Positions 1 to 9,680 of a stretch of 9,795 nt of DNA are shown in pieces. The translations under genes were made by a program, and so were the position numbers. The DNA lies in the IMG/VR virus record IMGVR_UViG_2711768052_000007, positions 1 to 9,795 of that record; one strand, 5' to 3'. The notes below the pieces were generated by a model. The model was not told the origin of the DNA, ran no database searches, and was given only the letters and a program-made list of their open reading frames with translations. Each line of letters opens with the position of its first letter. The stretch's first letter is position 1. The DNA comes from a virus (taxonomy: Duplodnaviria > Heunggongvirae > Uroviricota > Caudoviricetes).

Positions 1-564
1 TCAACGACTGCGCTTAGCGTGGCGCTCCCAGTTTTCTTGCTTCGCCTGCGCCGTTTTACGTAGTGCGACGTAACACGCCCCGCTGCCGCCATGATGCGGT
101 AGCGCAGTGCAATATGCCTGAACATCATCAAATTCGGTCAGCCAGCGCGCCACATAGCTGCGGACAATATTGGCATGCGATTTATCATCCCGTCCTTTGC
201 CATGAATAATCAGCACGTTACGCAAACCATCAGCCATGGCTTGTTGAATGAAACTGAACATCATTTTGCGGCACTCTTCCACCGGCTGGCGCAAAAGATT
301 CAGGCTCGCCTGTTGCGGATATTTACCACTGCGCAGCTTATCCAGCACCCCATGTTGCAACCCTTCCCGCCGAAACTCCAGCGGCTGACTTAGTGGGATG
401 ATGTCGAGAAATCCGGTGGTGAGGAAATTATCAAGCTGCAGCGTGTCGATACGCTGCGGCGCACGTTGGTTACGCGTTGGATGCCAGTGGACATCGGTAG
501 CACGTTTCAGCGGCTGGACATCTTCCATGGCGTCAAGAAACAGCGATTTGTCGTCAAGGTTCAT
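1..564 (-). CDS. smrA: Smr-domain protein SmrA (YdaL), probable DNA endonuclease
   Basis: Complete 187-aa ORF (ATG at 564-562, stop at 3-1). The translation matches E. coli SmrA/YdaL as I recall it, including length. SD-like GGAGGATG lies upstream at about 568-575. Confidence 0.85.
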   Translation of the reverse strand: MNLDDKSLFLDAMEDVQPLKRATDVHWHPTRNQRAPQRIDTLQLDNFLTTGFLDIIPLSQPLEFRREGLQHGVLDKLRSGKYPQQASLNLLRQPVEECRKMMFSFIQQAMADGLRNVLIIHGKGRDDKSHANIVRSYVARWLTEFDDVQAYCTALPHHGGSGACYVALRKTAQAKQENWERHAKRSR

Positions 565-3236: not shown

Positions 3237-4292
3237 TTAACCAATTTTTACGGTAACAAATTTGCGGATATCTGCCGGAACCGGCTGTGGTGCGCTGTGC
3301 GTCTGCACGTATTCAATCGACGGATCGCCGCCCTCAATCCAGTTTTTCGGGTAGTACATGTTTCGCGTTGCGCCAGTTCTTACCGCTTCCTGATCCATAA
3401 TCGCGCCATAGGCCACCAGTCCTTTATTGCTGGTATTACCCAGAACAAGCAAATCAGGCTCAAGGAAATATTTTTCCGTTCCGTCGCCGTCAGTGTATTT
3501 ACCGGAATAAACGATAAGGGCCAGATCGCCAAGATAGCCTTTAAAGCTCACCACTTCGCCCAGGTTTTTACACGCCAGCTCTGCGGCGGATTCTGAACCA
3601 CGGGAAAGATCGTACAGTTCACGAAATTTTTTAAAGCTGCGTAACGTGCGCCATACCTCAACGCCCATAATCATGACGTTGGCGGGGCAACCTGCCTGAT
3701 CGGTGTACAGTTCGATGTCATAAATTGGATCGTGCGTTTCCTTGTCAGCCTCTGACCACTTTTTACCTTGTCCCTGCGTAATGATGTTTTTAGTCGGGAT
3801 TTTCCAGTCGATTTCGTATCGATTTATACCTTCGCCTTCAATGATGTTTTTCCCGGTCGTGACTGCATTCACCGCCAGCCATTCCACACGCGCTTTAATG
3901 GAATTTACCTGGCGGCGCATGTTGCCCGTAATCAGGCGCATACGACGGTATGTAGGGTCGTTAAGCTGTGCTGGATCTTCACCAGCCATGCGTATGATGG
4001 TTTTTGATGGATCGATTTCGTGTTTGGGTTTCATGTAGCCAGGGCGGATAGTGCTTGTTTCGTACCCTTTATCTCGCTGAACCTGGCTACCCACCATAGG
4101 CGAACAAAACGCCGACATGGTGACTTCTTCAATATCCAGGGTATCTAACATGATGTCCTGCGTGTTGAAGGTCGCCACGTTCGGGAAAAACAGCGACGTA
4201 AACAGCGGACTAAATTTAAAATCTGGAATATCCTGGCGATTCAGATATGTAAAAAGCTGATGCGTGTTAAGCGCCTGCGCTTTGTCTGTCAT
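3237..4292 (-). CDS. Major capsid protein (lambda gpE-like)
   Basis: 351 aa with conserved blocks shared with lambda E: FKFSPLF, PGYMKPKHE, EDPAQLNDPTYRRMR, VVSFKGYLGDLALIVYSGKY, VLGNT, YPKNW, GDP, SAP. The start ATG overlaps the upstream stop (ATGA). Confidence 0.9.
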   Translation of the reverse strand: MTDKAQALNTHQLFTYLNRQDIPDFKFSPLFTSLFFPNVATFNTQDIMLDTLDIEEVTMSAFCSPMVGSQVQRDKGYETSTIRPGYMKPKHEIDPSKTIIRMAGEDPAQLNDPTYRRMRLITGNMRRQVNSIKARVEWLAVNAVTTGKNIIEGEGINRYEIDWKIPTKNIITQGQGKKWSEADKETHDPIYDIELYTDQAGCPANVMIMGVEVWRTLRSFKKFRELYDLSRGSESAAELACKNLGEVVSFKGYLGDLALIVYSGKYTDGDGTEKYFLEPDLLVLGNTSNKGLVAYGAIMDQEAVRTGATRNMYYPKNWIEGGDPSIEYVQTHSAPQPVPADIRKFVTVKIG

Positions 4293-4498
4293 TGCTCACC
4301 CCCATGAGTCTGATTCATGCCAAGCGCAGCGCGTAAATGGCTGCGTACCATCCAACCAACTGACGGCTTCACCATGCACAACGGATCAAGGCCGACTTTT
4401 TTGCCTGCTTCTGCGTTCTCCTCAAAGCGCGCATTAAGTGCCGCGATAATATCGGGGCTGATGTATACGGATACACCGCCCAGCTTCTGTGTTCCCAT
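4289..4498 (-). CDS. Hypothetical small protein (69 aa), translationally coupled to the capsid gene
   Basis: ATG at 4498-4496 is preceded by AGAGGA, and the stop overlaps the capsid ATG. The upstream part of the track ORF (to 4564) has no RBS. Confidence 0.4.
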   Translation of the reverse strand: MGTQKLGGVSVYISPDIIAALNARFEENAEAGKKVGLDPLCMVKPSVGWMVRSHLRAALGMNQTHGGEQ

Positions 4499-4550
4499 AA
4501 ATGAAATTCCTCTTTGACTAAAAAACAAACATAACGAAAAATCAGTCATG

Positions 4551-4580
4551 ATTTTAATCATCATTGCATTTTTTGCAATG
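4551..4580 (-). promoter_or_regulatory. Putative sigma70-type promoter for the head/packaging operon with an overlapping inverted repeat
   Basis: On the minus strand, -35 TTGCAA (4578-4573), 16-bp spacer, -10 TAAAAT (4556-4551). The 7-bp inverted repeat CATTGCA-N5-TGCAATG (4562-4580) overlaps the -35 and spacer. Confidence 0.3.
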
Positions 4581-4675
4581 CAATTGACTATTATTGCAAA
4601 TCATGAAAGTATAATTCCGCGGTTTTACCTTGTATCGTAGAGTTGTTAGCATCAATCACGTTAACGGCATGAAAT

Positions 4676-4709
4676 CCCCCCGGAACCTCATCCCGGGGGG
4701 ATTTTTTTT
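4676..4709 (+). terminator. Strong plus-strand intrinsic terminator
   Basis: 8-bp GC stem CCCCCCGG/CCGGGGGG (4676-4683 / 4693-4700) with a 9-nt loop, followed by A and T8 (4702-4709). Confidence 0.6.
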
Positions 4710-4713
4710 GCGC

Positions 4714-4741
4714 ACAAAAAAGCCGTGAAAAATCCCGGCTT
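4714..4741 (-). terminator. Minus-strand intrinsic terminator after the SSB-like gene
   Basis: On the minus strand, hairpin AAGCCG-N10-CGGCTT is followed by TTTTTT. It lies about 15 bp downstream of the alternative-frame TAA stop at 4758-4756. Confidence 0.45.
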
Positions 4742-4755
4742 CTGTCACTCGTTGC

Positions 4756-5122
4756 TTAAAACGGTATGTTATCCCCGTACGGATCATCATTTCCCGCCTG
4801 TTGTTTTGCCCTGTTCAGTGCGTCAGTAGCCTGGCCCTGTTGACCTTTTTTGCCGCCCGGGCGCGCCGTTCTGGCCTGTCCACTGGCTTACCTGCATGTT
4901 ACCCGCCACGCTCACAAGTTCGCCTTTCTGGTGCTTTGCCAGTGCGTCGGCCTGTCTGCCAAACGCCAGGACGGATAACCACATCGTCGCCGTTCCGTCA
5001 TCTGCCTGGCTGCACGGCAGGGGAACCGCCATACTCGCCATCGCCATTTGTGTCCCTTTGCTGGTGGTCTTTAACTGCGGGTCAGCCACCAGCCGCCCGT
5101 AAGCCGCTATCTGTGCTGTCAT
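4756..5122 (-). CDS. SSB-like single-stranded DNA-binding protein with an apparent +1 frameshift near an A6 tract
   Basis: The track ORF (4823..5122) shows an SSB-like OB-fold pattern (GRLVADPQL..., WLSVLAFGRQADALAKHQKGELVSVAGNMQVSQWTGQNG versus E. coli SSB [40 protein letters not shown]). The +1 frame downstream of the A6 run (4846-4851) continues to ...AGNDDPYGDNIPF and stops at 4758-4756. IPF is the hallmark C-terminal tip of bacterial SSBs. Confidence 0.5.
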
Positions 5123-5379: not shown

Positions 5380-5573
5380 CTCCCCACTTTTACTACCCAC
5401 TTTTTGAAATTACCCAACGTCTCCCCACTTCTTTTTTTTGTGATTCTAACGTGATGTTTTTCAATGTATTTTTTATTCCCCACTTTTTGGGGTATATACA
5501 GGTGGGAAAGTGGGGAATCGCGTTTCAATTTTGTTAAATTCCCCATACTCCCCACTTTTACTACCCACTTTTT
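5380..5573. repeat. Iteron-type origin of replication candidate
   Basis: An identical 26-bp direct repeat CTCCCCACTTTTACTACCCACTTTTT occurs at 5380-5405 and 5548-5573. The short motif TCCCCACTT occurs at 5381, 5422, 5477 and 5549, with an inverted copy AAGTGGGGA at 5508-5516. An AT-rich spacer lies at 5431-5476. The region is immediately 3' of the Rep-type gene. Confidence 0.6.
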
Positions 5574-6987
5574 ACAGTGGGCGCACGTCATCACCGTCAA
5601 TAGCAATAACGCCATCACCTTCCAGCTTGTACAGCCAGCGCCGGAAGTGTTTCATCTCATACCCCAGCTTTTTCATATCATCGCGCAACAACGGAATTGT
5701 GCATTTATCGCCGCGCTGTGTGCGTGAACGGATACAGCCCCATAGCGCGGCATGATTCTCCGTCTTGTTCCCGGCTTCCTCGATGCGCTCCAGTTCAACG
5801 GGTGGGCGCGGTTTATCCACAACCACCAGCGACGTGATTAACTCCTTGTCAGCGTCGGTAAAAAGCTCCACCACACGTAAATCGTATGCAGCCTCTTTCA
5901 GTTCCTCCGCGTCCTTCATTTTGGTGCAGGAGATAACCAGGGCTTCACTGTCTGCACCTTCACGGCGAATACGGTATTCAGCGTCCAGAGATGCACGAAA
6001 TGCACTGGAACCACGCGCCCCCTTTGTTTCATCCTTGCCGGAATGGTGAACCACCAGCACCGTGGCCCCTGTGCGGCGTTTCAGTTCGTCACATCCACGG
6101 ATAAACGCCCCCATATCCCGCGCGTCATTTTCATCATTACCGCCAAAGCAACGCGCCAGCGTATCAAGAATAATCATGCGTACCGGTTTACCCGTTTCCC
6201 GTTCAACCTGGCGGGAAGCGATGACCATTTCATCAACATCAAGCGGGACTGCCGGAAAAATCGGGCGGTTTACCAGGTACAGATTTTCCACCCGTTCATC
6301 ATTAACGATTTCCCATGCCTTGATACGGCGGGGGACACCAATGCCACCTTCACCGACAACATACATCACCGAACCATGCGCCACCCTGCGGCCTCCCCAG
6401 TGACGGCCAGTGGCAACATGACACGCCCAGGAACACGCGAGGAACGATTTATAGGAACCGCTCGCGCCGTATGTGCTGCACAATGAATTAGCCGGAATCA
6501 CGCCCTTAACGACATAATCAAGCTGTGTGTCGTACCCTGCAGATCCAATGCTCATTGGTAGCGTGGTTTTTCGCTGGCTGTATTGCTCGTCAGTAAGTAT
6601 TTCCCCGCGCTCTGCCTGTTCGCGGATCCGTTGCAGGTAGTCGTGCCAGTTCTCCAGCTTCTGGCTGTGCATTCCATCAGGGTAATAATTCGCATCCCGT
6701 ACACCTGCCGCCGCCAGCTTTTGCCCGATAGCATTAATATTTGACGGCTTGATGTGGCCTGCCTTGTACAGCCGGACACAATAGCGACCATCGTCGATGA
6801 TTTTCAGGTCTGCCAGTTCGTCAAGCTGGCTGTCTCCAAGCCATACGGGTGGCACGTTGTCGCCAGCAAGTCGCCCGTCCTGTTCCTGCCATTGTTTCGC
6901 GTGCGCCCAGGCATCACTACCCGCAAAAATAATGACTTCGGTCATTTTGTCGTGTGGCTGTTTTTTTAAGTTCGGTGCCAGTTTCAT
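5572..6987 (-). CDS. Replication initiator / helicase-type ATPase (RecA-like P-loop NTPase with C-terminal winged-helix)
   Basis: 471 aa with a Walker A-like YGASGSYKSF, then MIILDTLAR and VLVVHHSGKDETKG blocks typical of RepA/DnaB-like satellite and plasmid replication ATPases. The C-terminus looks like a DNA-binding domain. The start ATG overlaps the upstream stop (ATGA). Confidence 0.75.
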   Translation of the reverse strand: MKLAPNLKKQPHDKMTEVIIFAGSDAWAHAKQWQEQDGRLAGDNVPPVWLGDSQLDELADLKIIDDGRYCVRLYKAGHIKPSNINAIGQKLAAAGVRDANYYPDGMHSQKLENWHDYLQRIREQAERGEILTDEQYSQRKTTLPMSIGSAGYDTQLDYVVKGVIPANSLCSTYGASGSYKSFLACSWACHVATGRHWGGRRVAHGSVMYVVGEGGIGVPRRIKAWEIVNDERVENLYLVNRPIFPAVPLDVDEMVIASRQVERETGKPVRMIILDTLARCFGGNDENDARDMGAFIRGCDELKRRTGATVLVVHHSGKDETKGARGSSAFRASLDAEYRIRREGADSEALVISCTKMKDAEELKEAAYDLRVVELFTDADKELITSLVVVDKPRPPVELERIEEAGNKTENHAALWGCIRSRTQRGDKCTIPLLRDDMKKLGYEMKHFRRWLYKLEGDGVIAIDGDDVRPL

Positions 6988-7283
6988 TTTTTACCCCTGA
7001 ATGCGTTAATCATGTTTTTCATTTTCTGAATATTTGCCCGTGCCTTTGCGTTGCTGGTGGGCTGTTTGCGTGGTGTGGCCTGTATCAGTGAAAAATCACG
7101 CCGGAACTGATAAACAGGCATCACGCAGTCATAACCGTACCCATCACGGCGGTAAGTAACGCACCGTCCCGCCACGCTTTTAATCGTTACCGTGCCGCCG
7201 TAGTTATCCCGGAAAATATCGCCGGGGCGGATTTCAGGCCGAGCGGGGCCGCTGGCAGTAAAGCCAGAATTTTTCTTTTTCAT
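6984..7283 (-). CDS. Hypothetical protein (99 aa, basic C-terminal tail), translationally coupled to the rep gene
   Basis: ATG at 7283 is preceded by AGAGGA. No family recognised. Confidence 0.5.
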   Translation of the reverse strand: MKKKNSGFTASGPARPEIRPGDIFRDNYGGTVTIKSVAGRCVTYRRDGYGYDCVMPVYQFRRDFSLIQATPRKQPTSNAKARANIQKMKNMINAFRGKK

Positions 7284-7288
7284 GGTTT

Positions 7289-7498
7289 TTATTCCTCTGC
7301 GCGGGTCTTGTCGTGTATTTCCATAACCGCGTTTAATTCATCAATAACCGGGGTTAACAGAGTGCTGAAAGCAGAAAATAAATCCCCCCCCCGTTCGGCA
7401 TGAACTTCGGTTAATTTAATTAATACCGCTTTCATTTCCAGTGCCCGGTTTAATGCATTCTCAGAATGAATAAGAACATCGAAAGGGATTTTATCCAT
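7289..7498 (-). CDS. Hypothetical small helical protein (69 aa) containing a G10 homopolymer
   Basis: ATG at 7498 overlaps the upstream gene end by 8 nt. A run of 10 C (plus strand 7383-7392) lies inside the ORF. No family recognised. Confidence 0.4.
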   Translation of the reverse strand: MDKIPFDVLIHSENALNRALEMKAVLIKLTEVHAERGGDLFSAFSTLLTPVIDELNAVMEIHDKTRAEE

Positions 7499-7957
7499 GG
7501 CTTACATCCTCCGTGAATTTTCTTCTGTACCGTGCCTCTGCCACATATTCAGCATAGTCCGACGCAATAATAAGAATATCGTTGCCGGTTCCTGAATGTT
7601 CAGCGGTTCCAATTAAAAAACATGCGGCCTTTATCAGGTCATTAACAGCCAGCAACGCATCGCCTGTATCATCCGGTGCGCCATCAAATTCCTGTTTCAG
7701 GGCATTAAAACGATCATCACGCATAACCCCCCCCCATTTTCACAATCAGCAATCAGGATGGCTTTGGCCTCATTCAGTGCCATATCAGCGGTAAGCTGTG
7801 CGTAGGCCAGCGAATGGGGGATTATTGCCCCTGTATACTCCGGCTCTCTGGTAATGTGTTTTTCTGCGGTTGCTGCCGTGCATGAAATATCAATCAGCGC
7901 GTGCATCAGCGTAGTGAGCGCGGCGGCTGCTGCGTCCGGACGTGGGTTATTGCACAT
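7491..7957 (-). pseudogene. Hypothetical protein split into two ORFs at a G9 homopolymer (frameshifted or phase-variable)
   Basis: ATG at 7957-7955 has a strong RBS (AGGAGGT, 5-nt spacer). The frame runs to a stop at 7699-7697 just after the G9 tract (plus-strand C9 at 7727-7735). The 77-aa ORF 7491..7724 continues in the +1 frame, and one extra G would fuse both into about 157 aa. Confidence 0.4.
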
Positions 7958-8249
7958 GGCGCACCTCCTGACGAATACGGGCGGCGAATACAGCGACACA
8001 ACCGGACGGGCAACGGTTACGCGCTTCGCGTTCTGTCCATGCGGTGACGTGGATGATTTGAGATTCTCCGGCACTCAGTGCCAGAAAACGCCACACAAAG
8101 GCCGTTTGTGTGTGCGCTAGGCGTGGGGTATGCTGTGTTCCAGCCATAATCGTTACCTCGTTTAACGGTTTGGTTAGAAGCCCCGTTACTGCTCCAACAG
8201 TGCGGGGCTTCGTCGTTTCAATTGCTGAATTGCATGTATCAGCCCTTGT

Positions 8250-8316
8250 GGTATTCAGATTACATTTTGGTGAATACCATTTCAAGTCTTTTTTGGTATT
8301 CACTTTTGTATTACAC
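8250..8316. promoter_or_regulatory. Operator-like repeats GGTATTCA(C) upstream of the ribbon-helix-helix gene
   Basis: GGTATTCA at 8250-8257; a perfect 9-bp inverted pair GTGAATACC (8270-8278) and GGTATTCAC (8295-8303); a degenerate copy GTATTACAC at 8308-8316. A candidate -10 TATTAAT lies at 8327-8333. Confidence 0.35.
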
Positions 8317-8346
8317 TGCATCCCGTTATTAATCGGAGGTGCAAAC

Positions 8347-8652
8347 ATGTCCACGAGTTCTGTTAACAATAAGTCACAGCAACTGAATGCCAGATTTCCA
8401 CATGAAGTAGTGAGTGGCATTGAGGCATCCCTACAGCCAGGGGAAACTAAAGCGAATTTTATAGTTACGGCTGTACGCGGTGAGATCGCCCGCCGCCAGG
8501 CAGAAGGAAGCGGAGAAAATCCCCTGGTTTCTTCGCTCGATGCACTGGCGCAGGTGGAAAAAATCGGAGTCAAAGCAGCCGAGGAGATCGGGCAACTCGT
8601 CACCGTCGCGCGTGAAGAACTCCAGCGCCGCAAGGCCAAAGAGCAGGAATAG
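8347..8652 (+). CDS. Ribbon-helix-helix (Arc/CopG-like) DNA-binding protein, putative island regulator
   Basis: 101 aa with a strong RBS (GGAGGTG, 5-nt spacer). The N-terminus (QQLNARFPHEVVSGIEASL...ANFIVTAVRGEIARR) fits the beta-strand plus two-helix RHH pattern. It is the only convincing plus-strand gene in the island. Confidence 0.55.
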   Translation: MSTSSVNNKSQQLNARFPHEVVSGIEASLQPGETKANFIVTAVRGEIARRQAEGSGENPLVSSLDALAQVEKIGVKAAEEIGQLVTVAREELQRRKAKEQE

Positions 8653-8656
8653 CCCC

Positions 8657-8675
8657 ACCGGAATTTTTTTCCGGT
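8657..8675. terminator. Hairpin between convergent genes (possible bidirectional terminator)
   Basis: ACCGGAA-TTTTT-TTCCGGT lies 5 bp after the RHH stop and abuts an out-of-frame minus-strand TAA. There is no long U-tract on either side. Confidence 0.3.
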
Positions 8676-9143
8676 TACGCTTTGCCCACCAGCCGCAAAT
8701 GTGGCATTGTTGGTGATGCGTTCAAGTTTGATTTGCCGTAATACCCACTGGCGACCCTTTGCGGTCGCCTTTGTTTTGCCTGTTATCCGGCAATTGTGGC
8801 GCTTCGCCACACGGTTGATATAATCCCACTGCTCAGATTCATTTTTTGCGCAGTAGGTTAATTGTTCGCAAGGGCGCTCCGGCAACGGGGCGCTTTTTGT
8901 TTTTATTAGTTTGTAGAAAACTGACTCAGAGATAATGCTCATATTCTGATTGCCGTCAGGGGGGTAAGTTAAATTTACTCCCTTTTCATCAAGCATCTGC
9001 AACGCTCTGGCGTTAATAATATTGGTTTCACTCCCGCCAATAAGGCCGGAAATAACCGGAATAATTTCAGCGAAATTTTGCAGATTCTGGTTTTCAGGCC
9101 GAACGAAGCCCCGCCCCTGTACAGGCGTATATCCAGTATTCAT
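8675..9143 (-). CDS. Hypothetical protein with a weak Bro-N/Ant-like motif; C-terminal frame unresolved
   Basis: ATG at 9143. The first 150 residues or so look protein-like, and ISESVFYKLIKTKSAP resembles the SESGLYxLIxRSRKPEA motif of Bro-N/Ant-type proteins. The in-frame ORF has no stop until 7947 and runs antisense through the RHH gene; a TAA in the +1 frame at 8677-8675 is the likely true end. Confidence 0.4.
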
Positions 9144-9195: not shown

Positions 9196-9384
9196 TTAGT
9201 GAACTGCCTCGCGGCTGTCCTTCCATGCCAGAACTTCGGATAAAGACCAGCCAACGGAACGACCACCGAGTTTACGCCGTGATGGGAATTGTCCAGTCTT
9301 CTCCAGGCGATACCGACATGAGCGGCTCAGGCCTGTAAGTTGCTGACATTCTTTTTCACGTATAAAGCGATCTGTGCTTAACAC
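9196..9384 (-). CDS. alpA: AlpA-family (Xis-like HTH) transcriptional regulator
   Basis: The C-terminal 62 aa (VLSTDRFIREKECQQLTGLSRSCRYRLEKTGQFPSRRKLGGRSVGWSLSEVLAWKDSRE) matches the AlpA pattern. A GTG start at 9384-9382 is preceded by AAGGGGGA. The track ORF's upstream 36 codons are low-complexity and lack an RBS. Confidence 0.7.
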   Translation of the reverse strand: MLSTDRFIREKECQQLTGLSRSCRYRLEKTGQFPSRRKLGGRSVGWSLSEVLAWKDSREAVH

Positions 9385-9680
9385 AATTCCCCCTTTGTTG
9401 TTTCTTAAAGAGTCATTGGGTGGATTATTGGGTTGGGTTGTGTCGGATTGTGTCAGGGTGTTTATGGAATGGCAAACACTGGTGGCGGTCATTTTACAGA
9501 AGTGGGGGTAGTGAGAATAAAAATCCTTTTAATTCATTATGATGTAAAGGCATAAAATTCTGTTTTTACGCCTTTTTTACATGTTTTTAAGAGTGATTCG
9601 CCAATGTACAAAAAGCCAGTAAAACGACTGAAAATCAACTTTTTAGGGTGTCAGTCAGATGATAATCAAGTTTGTTCCAG

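Follow-up and report, generated by a model that had tools for sequence, protein, structure and literature searches.

Type-specific phased repeats beside a YlcI/YnfO-family gene: a candidate repressor-operator switch in a Gram-negative phage-inducible chromosomal island

The island and the proteins flanking the gap

By its gene content, the window (the whole stretch of 9795 bp analysed here) is a Gram-negative phage-inducible chromosomal island (PICI) of the EcCICFT073 type, from E. coli. It has the layout of islands of this kind, which are about 10-12 kb long: an int-alpA part, a variable zone, a primase/replicase operon and a late zone that carries captured head genes. Its gene order is the same as that of EcCICFT073 in CFT073, gene for gene. 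The genes and landmarks are as follows.

1-564, minus strand: smrA, beside which the island is inserted
3237-4292: lambda-E-like capsid gene of the late operon, which also holds a decoration gene and a TerS-like gene
4664-4742: tandem pair of hairpin terminators between the early (replication) and late (head) operons
5572-6987, leftward: AAA_25 replicase gene of the early operon, which follows small ORFs and a DUF4222 gene downstream of the Icd-like gene
7947-8147, minus strand: Icd-like gene, first of the leftward early operon (NF033153, 64.9 bits; named so by PGAP in the identical locus H1)
8148-8346: gap of 199 bp between the divergent Icd-like and RHH genes, which holds the repeats
8347-8652, plus strand: putative ribbon-helix-helix (RHH) gene of the YlcI/YnfO family, 101 aa (NCBIfam NF041551; SD GGAGG at 8336-8340)
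9196-9492, minus strand: alpA (Pfam Phage_AlpA)

A 398-aa ORF on the minus strand (7947-9143) is spurious: it crosses the RHH gene and the gap in antisense, and only its last 66 codons are those of the Icd-like gene. The 91-aa ORF at 4289-4564 (minus strand) is over-extended. Relatives have their annotated start at an internal ATG at 4498 (68 aa, SD AGAGGA), and with this start for the first head gene the stretch 4499-4822 is non-coding. No tRNA was found in the window, and no curated Rfam family scored above threshold when the whole window and 7850-8360 were scanned; the weak Rfam matches at 4669-4741 and 4507-4709 (ncr1175 and rli38 were named) are terminator hairpins only. The replicase module has been swapped between islands. 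The window encodes a 471-aa AAA_25 protein, while the island L001, with an identical control region, encodes a 601-aa primase-family protein (6260-8065 of that locus), and the two have only their first 131 residues in common, at 89% identity.

What kind of protein does the gene on the right of the gap encode? Its product scores 60.3 bits against NF041551 (cutoff 30) over residues 9-50, and an identical protein is named YlcI/YnfO by PGAP. The AF2 model (pLDDT 76) is extended at residues 12-18, with helices at 19-28 and 35-54 and a single long helix at 59-100; in our layout the beta-strand spans residues 10-17 and is followed by these same helices. In the model, the beta-strand and the two helices after it can be superimposed on solved RHH domains. 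Arc comes first among the Foldseek matches, without significance (E about 7), and hhalign places NKSQQLNARFPHEVV on SKMPQFNLRWPREVL of Arc in register (E 0.004, probability 8%). In Pfam, neither the RHH protein nor the Icd-like protein has a match at E up to 0.01. The best Pfam family for the former is PSK_trans_fac, with 16.8 bits against a threshold of 28.3, and it matches 15 of the 21 family members, all below cutoff (best E 0.0015). A profile search of the PDB returned no RHH match, and Arc/Mnt did not rise above threshold among Pfam or PDB sequences. Since the sequence profiles stay below threshold, it is mainly structure prediction that assigns an Arc/Mnt-like ribbon-helix-helix fold to the N-terminal domain of the 101-aa protein.

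In Arc, the base-contacting beta-strand residues are Q9, N11 and R13. Given the hhalign register, residues 12, 14 and 16 of the island protein presumably match them. In the homologue alignment residues 12 and 14 vary between classes while Arg16 is invariant, which agrees with operators whose centres vary and whose TG/CA edges are conserved (see below). The long C-terminal helix is probably an oligomerisation element, though it may instead contact DNA. Residues 55-90 also gave a weak helix-hairpin-helix-like match to the (HhH)2 domain of Hef in the PDB search (E 0.007), which is contradicted by the one continuous helix of the AF2 model.

Of 5426 complete E. coli genomes, 807 carry relatives of the RHH gene, and a tblastn search of 50,697 phage records with the protein gave no match. 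EcCICFT073 itself carries the same module (CFT073; L177 25474-25653). Its YlcI/YnfO protein is shortened to 59 aa by a deletion within the gene that keeps the frame, so that ...GEIKRRQ runs straight into RRKAKEQE and the long C-terminal helix is gone. The operators there are GTGTGGCCCAC (twice) and CTGTCCCCCAC, and the RHH class differs from that of the window.

Repeats in the gap and their variation between islands

Three exact copies of TGGTATTCA are present in the window, and all of them lie in the gap, at 8249 (plus), 8271 (minus) and 8294 (plus). Their centres are 22-23 bp apart and their orientation alternates. The first-pass annotation had described an inverted 9-bp pair with two further copies. 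The pair, GTGAATACC (8270-8278) and GGTATTCAC (8295-8303), is perfect and even extends to 10 bp, GTGAATACCA at 8270-8279 and TGGTATTCAC at 8294-8303, with 14 nt between the arms; the copy at 8249-8257 is exact as well. The fourth copy, GTATTACAC at 8309-8317, does not stand on the same footing: it is degenerate, it is not a repeat in the same-type locus L106, and the likely -10 of the RHH gene (TACACT, 8312-8317) falls within it. With up to one mismatch, TGGTATTCA has 8 matches in the window against 2.4 expected, and none of 200 shuffles had as many. Among Markov-1 random 199-mers, 45 of 5000 (0.9%) contained a 9-mer at least three times, and one of 1000 (0.1%) contained an inverted repeat with arms of at least 10. 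The repeats in the gap are real and non-random. A further operator-like sequence, CTGAATGCCAG, with one mismatch to the minus-strand TGGTATTCA, lies inside the RHH gene at 8382-8392. It falls in the beta-strand codons (L-N-A-R), 89 bp from the site S3 defined below, which is about four repeat periods.

Are such repeats conserved in related islands? About 170 loci from genomes, metagenomes and IMG/VR, with 71 distinct upstream regions, were gathered via the homologue alignment and put into about 10 classes according to the beta-strand residues that directly precede the conserved R-x-P-H-D/E motif. In every class repeats lie at about -98, -75, -53 and -30 from the ATG, in some also at -121, in alternating orientation. 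The positions are constant, and the repeated sequence varies with the beta-strand type of the adjacent YlcI/YnfO-family protein. The motifs of six classes are listed here by beta-strand, and all fit an 11-bp frame, xTG-N5-CAx.

QQLNARF: GGTATTCA
QSLTARI: TGTAAGAC
(K/R)QISIRI: TGTGATT(C/T)A
QLTTVRV: TGTGTTTCA
QMTTIRV: GTGA(G/T)ATAC
Q(V/L)KN(V/I)RI: GGTGTGTAT

The matrix of motifs against classes is diagonal: a class holds 2.8-4.9 copies of its own motif and about none of the others, except between near-identical classes. In L106, the most diverged locus sharing the beta-strand of the window (its RHH protein is 81% identical), the ATTCA(C) cores are kept at S1-S3 while spacers and flanks diverge.

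The operator type covaries with the RHH type and shows no covariation with the Icd-like protein, AlpA or the replicase. Icd-like proteins 97-98% identical to that of the window occur with three other operator types, and AlpA proteins 96-98% identical to that of the window likewise occur with other types. Within the class of the window, the identity of Icd-like proteins ranges from 49 to 100% and that of AlpA from 38 to 100%. In locus H1 the control region is 100% identical and the replicase matches that of the window over the first 131 aa only. Along the sequence, identity to islands of other types drops from 95-100% to 32-55% over 8217-8456 and returns to 80-98% from 8457 on, and most E. coli matches to the RHH gene begin at query position 112, which is window position 8458. 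This indicates that islands exchange the operators, the promoters and RHH codons 1-37 together, as a single cassette, in which the RHH N-terminus is the sole type-specific protein segment. It should be noticed that the operators adjoin the beta-strand codons, and co-inheritance alone would yield some association; the case therefore rests on the type-specific repetition within each locus.

Promoters, a candidate antisense RNA and the head-operon promoter

The predicted sites and promoters of the gap, from left to right, are the following.

8217-8456 (approximate): variable specificity cassette by the identity profile (operators, both promoters, 5' UTR and RHH codons 1-37)
8225-8235, minus strand: S0, tentative weak fifth site, CTGAATTGCAT in plus-strand reading, 8 of 11 positions identical to S2
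8248-8258, plus strand: S1, predicted operator site GTGGTATTCAG, containing an exact TGGTATTCA, on the -10 edge and +1 of P_L
8257-8285, minus strand: P_L, predicted leftward promoter of the Icd-like/replication operon, -35 TTGAAA at 8285-8280, 17 nt, -10 TAATCT at 8262-8257
8270-8280, minus strand: S2, predicted operator site ATGGTATTCAC, one arm of the 10-bp inverted repeat, in the P_L spacer
8293-8303, plus strand: S3, predicted operator site TTGGTATTCAC, the other arm, upstream of and within the P_R spacer
8312-8317, plus strand: TACACT, likely -10 of P_R, the promoter of the RHH gene, placed by conservation only and lacking a good -35
8316-8326, minus strand: S4, decayed site CTGCATCCCGT at a canonical position, with 7 of 11 positions matching

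P_L scores 8/12 in the window and was not called by the promoter scan. Its homologues were called in L005 (TTGACG-17-TAATAT) and L031 (TTGACG-17-TAACAT), and its -35 block, GTCAAG plus a T-run on the plus strand, that is TTGAC on the minus strand, is kept inside the otherwise variable cassette. For P_R, the elements at the position of TACACT are TATACT or TATAAT in other types and CATACT in L106. The sites can be followed in the same way. S3 is kept in L106 as GTGGTATTCGT; the position of S4 holds a perfect site in L106, CTGAATACCAC, and in other types a strong reverse-oriented site directly after the P_R -10, at the +1 of P_R. S0 is spaced 23 bp from S1; at its position an exact fifth copy of the own motif is present in three other RHH types, and L106 has GTAAATAACAC. 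With the promoters as predicted, the -35 elements stand back to back and the operator array is symmetric around the shared -35 region.

The left edge of the gap and the start of the Icd-like gene show a different kind of conservation, which fits an antisense RNA of about 79 nt against the Icd-like ribosome-binding site. Its candidate elements are listed below.

8106-8111 and 8129-8134, plus strand: predicted promoter, TTGTGT, 17 nt, TATGCT
8141-8219, plus strand: candidate sar-like antisense RNA, about 79 nt, covering the Icd-like SD and start codon
8151-8167, plus strand: hairpin H1, with an anti-SD CCUC in its loop, complementary to the Icd-like SD
8177-8211, plus strand: terminator hairpin H2, with a U-rich tail after it on the plus strand only

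In an alignment of 29 sequences, with the structure predicted on the plus strand, compensatory changes are present in 10 of the 18 base pairs of the two hairpins. The plus strand has 66 G.U pairs and the minus strand 2, and canonical pairs make up 97.5% against 85.1%, numbers to be read knowing that the plus strand was used to predict the structure. Across RHH classes, and in many other E. coli islands, 8141-8219 is conserved, and the TAnnnT of the -10 (8129-8134) is retained within a poorly conserved 5' end of the Icd-like ORF. In a blastn search of phage records only the short RNA region was matched, in three records, covering exactly 8141-8208. The candidate is not a member of the sar family by the test of Rfam, since RF00262 reaches 16.8 bits on the minus strand and 14.7 on the plus strand, in the hairpin only, against a gathering score of 43. 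By its predicted layout it might nevertheless work like sar: it is antisense to the ribosome-binding site of the first gene, has a conserved structure and carries its own terminator. The C4, isrK and P4 CI RNA models gave no match at E up to 1 in the window or at E up to 10 in 7850-8360. On the opposite, sense strand, a terminator-like hairpin, CACACAAACGGCCTTTGTGTG then GCGTTTTCTG, lies inside the Icd-like ORF at 8092-8112 (minus); it might attenuate the early operon.

The first-pass annotation had also pointed to ATTGCA and CAATTG motifs shared with the head-operon promoter, and had taken them as a hint of one regulator for both regions. The motifs are indeed present at both places: CAATTG at 8219-8224 and 4581-4586, ATTGCA at 8229-8234 and four times in 4563-4598. 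The relevant features at the head operon are two.

4551-4598, minus strand: head-operon promoter region called by the scan, -35 TTGCAA at 4578-4573, 16 nt, -10 TAAAAT at 4556-4551, ahead of the corrected start, at 4498, of the first head gene
4563-4579: palindrome ATTGCA-N5-TGCAAT overlapping the -35 hexamer, with a further ATTGCA at 4593-4598

In the window as a whole, ATTGCA occurs 9 times against 10.5 expected and CAATTG 4 times against 5.3, and for ATTGCA only the four-copy cluster at 4563-4598 stands out. The palindrome and TTGCAAAT (4593-4600) are kept in islands 70-80% identical and in EcCICFT073, and the palindrome is conserved whatever the RHH type; it may be a genuine regulatory site. 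A scan of the window with mismatches allowed found no site like TGGTATTCA or GGTATTCA near the head promoter.

A candidate repressor switch and its relation to known systems

What then is the function of the repeats? Very probably they are operators of the adjacent Arc/Mnt-like repressor, as their covariation with its beta-strand suggests. We further consider it likely that the gap is a repressor-operator switch for both the early operon and the repressor gene, paired with the antisense RNA. RHH dimers would bind the 11-bp sites xTG-N5-CAx, whose core in the window island is GGTATTCA(C). The sites recur every 22-23 bp, about two helical turns, and would thus lie on the same face of the DNA, across the back-to-back divergent promoters. 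RHH operator subsites are usually adjacent, and a spacing of 22-23 bp is unusual. Occupation of S1, at the -10 and +1, and of S2, in the spacer, would turn P_L off and silence the Icd-like gene and the replication operon, while occupation of S3 (and of S4 in islands that have it intact) would limit the weak P_R of the repressor itself. Specificity would come from the outward-facing beta-strand residues 12 and 14, and the swapping of operators and beta-strand between islands as one cassette would create immunity-like types. The plus-strand antisense RNA over the Icd-like SD and start codon would add a second, post-transcriptional layer. Binding, repression, oligomerisation and physiological role are what we infer from the sequence.

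Could the repeats serve negative autoregulation of the RHH promoter only and leave the divergent operon unaffected? RHH proteins as a rule autoregulate, the P_R region contains S3, and in other types the P_R +1 coincides with S4. The first-pass annotation expected autoregulation by an RHH repressor, and it was right in that they behave as RHH operators, which covary with the beta-strand type and not with the Icd-like protein or AlpA. The reading is incomplete, however, in that two of the three strong sites overlap the conserved P_L: S1 and S2 are 70-100 bp upstream of the RHH ATG, on the P_L -10/+1 and spacer, and the array has its symmetry centre in the shared -35 region. This layout predicts repression of the early operon plus autoregulation, and with S1 and S2 on P_L and S3 (and S4) on P_R it points to a switch like that of P22 immI, so that autoregulation alone is unlikely. 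It is less likely still that AlpA, the Icd-like protein or a host factor binds the repeats while the RHH protein acts elsewhere, for example by pairing with the Icd-like division inhibitor in the manner of an antitoxin. Relatives of the Icd-like protein are labelled 'transcriptional repressor' in PHROGs, the conserved C-terminus of the RHH protein has no assigned role, and AlpA is a known activator of such islands (PMC6092414). But the operator type covaries with neither the Icd-like protein nor AlpA, the cassette contains no type-specific protein segment other than the RHH N-terminus, and a host factor would need no type-specific motifs.

Also unsupported, and of the same low standing, is a common regulator that would couple the RHH region to the head-operon promoter through ATTGCA/CAATTG. 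ATTGCAT is found at both 8229-8235 and 4563-4569, the head palindrome is conserved, and EcCICFT073 has TTGCATTTATGCA just right of the hairpin. Against this, neither motif is enriched in the window, those of 8219-8234 are absent at the equivalent spot in other RHH types, ATTGCA becomes ATAACA even in the same-type L106, and the motif at the head promoter coincides with the -35 hexamer TTGCAA. The copy at 8229-8234 fits better, tentatively, as part of the degenerate fifth operator copy S0, when CTGAATTGCAT is compared with GTGAATACCAT of S2. Phased direct and inverted repeats with regular spacing beside a replication operon may also recall the iterons of a replication origin, or a packaging or recombination site, which we regard as very improbable: the repeats covary with the RHH type and sit exactly on promoter elements, and the identical control region of locus H1 occurs with a replicase of unrelated catalytic part, which differs after residue 131.

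If the gap is a repressor-operator switch, what would it mean for these islands? Gram-negative PICIs are widespread and mobilise virulence and defence genes. The only regulator named for them is the activator AlpA, and the existence of a repressor was termed 'unclear' (PMC6092414). The zone from alpA to the replication genes has been described as dynamic and as holding immunity RNAs, and structured regulatory RNAs were reported from the 'Bro zone' of some Gram-negative PICIs (PMC10111431). In a 2026 survey YlcI/YnfO appears simply under the name 'prophage-associated protein' (PMC13612085). In the literature on YlcI/YnfO, on the regulation of EcCICFT073 and on Icd-like proteins in satellites, we found no description of a repressor-operator module. 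A type-specific RHH repressor on the early promoter would supply the missing negative arm, and the module is present even in EcCICFT073. Such a repressor could explain the silence of the islands, and it predicts incompatibility or immunity groups. It would also be the first functional prediction for the uncharacterised YlcI/YnfO family, and the about 10 natural pairs of beta-strand and operator form a data set for RHH recognition rules and orthogonal synthetic repressors.

EcCICFT073 is activated by AlpA, which was sufficient by itself for induction (Fillol-Salom et al. 2018, PMC6092414). Together with the loss of the long helix from its RHH protein, this suggests that the repressor may be dispensable or non-functional there. 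In Pseudomonas, AlpA is a processive antiterminator (PMC7969949, PMC9371919), so transcription that starts at the alpA promoter and is carried by AlpA through the convergent RHH gene could plausibly bypass the repressor, though by analogy this is speculation. A wider proposal is possible, and we hold it as doubtful: the RHH and operator cassette might be the missing master repressor, or immunity determinant, of Gram-negative PICIs, with cassettes defining satellite immunity groups, helpers counteracting or bypassing them (for example by AlpA read-through) and the sar-like RNA being a second lock on a toxic Icd-like protein.

How does the module compare with known systems? A switch of the RHH/immI type is a known kind of system, while the family, the phased multi-site architecture, the cassette exchange and the Gram-negative PICI setting appear to be undescribed. 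The closest relatives by name are ylcI and ynfO of K-12, prophage genes of the DUF3950 family with uncharacterised function; the window protein passes NF041551 with its N-terminal 42-residue domain. YnfO aligns with the window protein over residues 1-30 at 30% identity. It differs in having 77 aa, in lying beside nohA in a lambdoid prophage and in lacking the C-terminal helix of the satellite form, and upstream of ynfO there is a single 13-nt imperfect palindrome and no phased array. This palindrome, ATCAATTATGACG / CGTATTAATTGAT, lies about 70-100 bp upstream (L178 4655-4687, K-12 Qin prophage), divergent from nohA and near the cos region, and may be an analogous operator.

The Stl (Rpr) repressors of SaPIs and Gram-positive PICIs are likewise encoded divergently from the excision/replication operon, act over divergent promoters and are highly variable, but they are HTH repressors relieved by helper-phage proteins, whereas an RHH fold is predicted here. 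In P1 c4-icd-ant and in P4, with CI RNA and seqA, a structured regulatory RNA also precedes an Icd-like gene; unlike the C4 and CI RNAs, the candidate RNA of the island would be antisense, from the opposite strand, and not processed from a sense leader.

The nearest parallel is immI of P22. It differs from the window module in having one compact operator of 17-21 bp, where the window has 3-5 sites 22-23 bp apart, in having two repressors instead of one, in having Ant instead of an Icd-like protein as the product of the first gene, and in belonging to a phage and not to a satellite. The likenesses are several. In both, a small RHH repressor (predicted, in the island) is divergent from an operon that begins with a gene whose product targets the host or helper, and the operators cover overlapping divergent promoters, as Mnt does at Pant/Pmnt. 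The beta-strand is in register with that of Arc, with the same Q/N/R contact positions. Mnt is an RHH repressor with a tetramerisation helix, which the long C-terminal helix here recalls. Finally, P22 sar is a short antisense RNA that starts inside the first gene, lies over its ribosome-binding site and ends in a hairpin, as the candidate RNA would, and the terminator of sar resembles the hairpin of the candidate, GAAGCCCYG...CAGU..GGGGCUUC.
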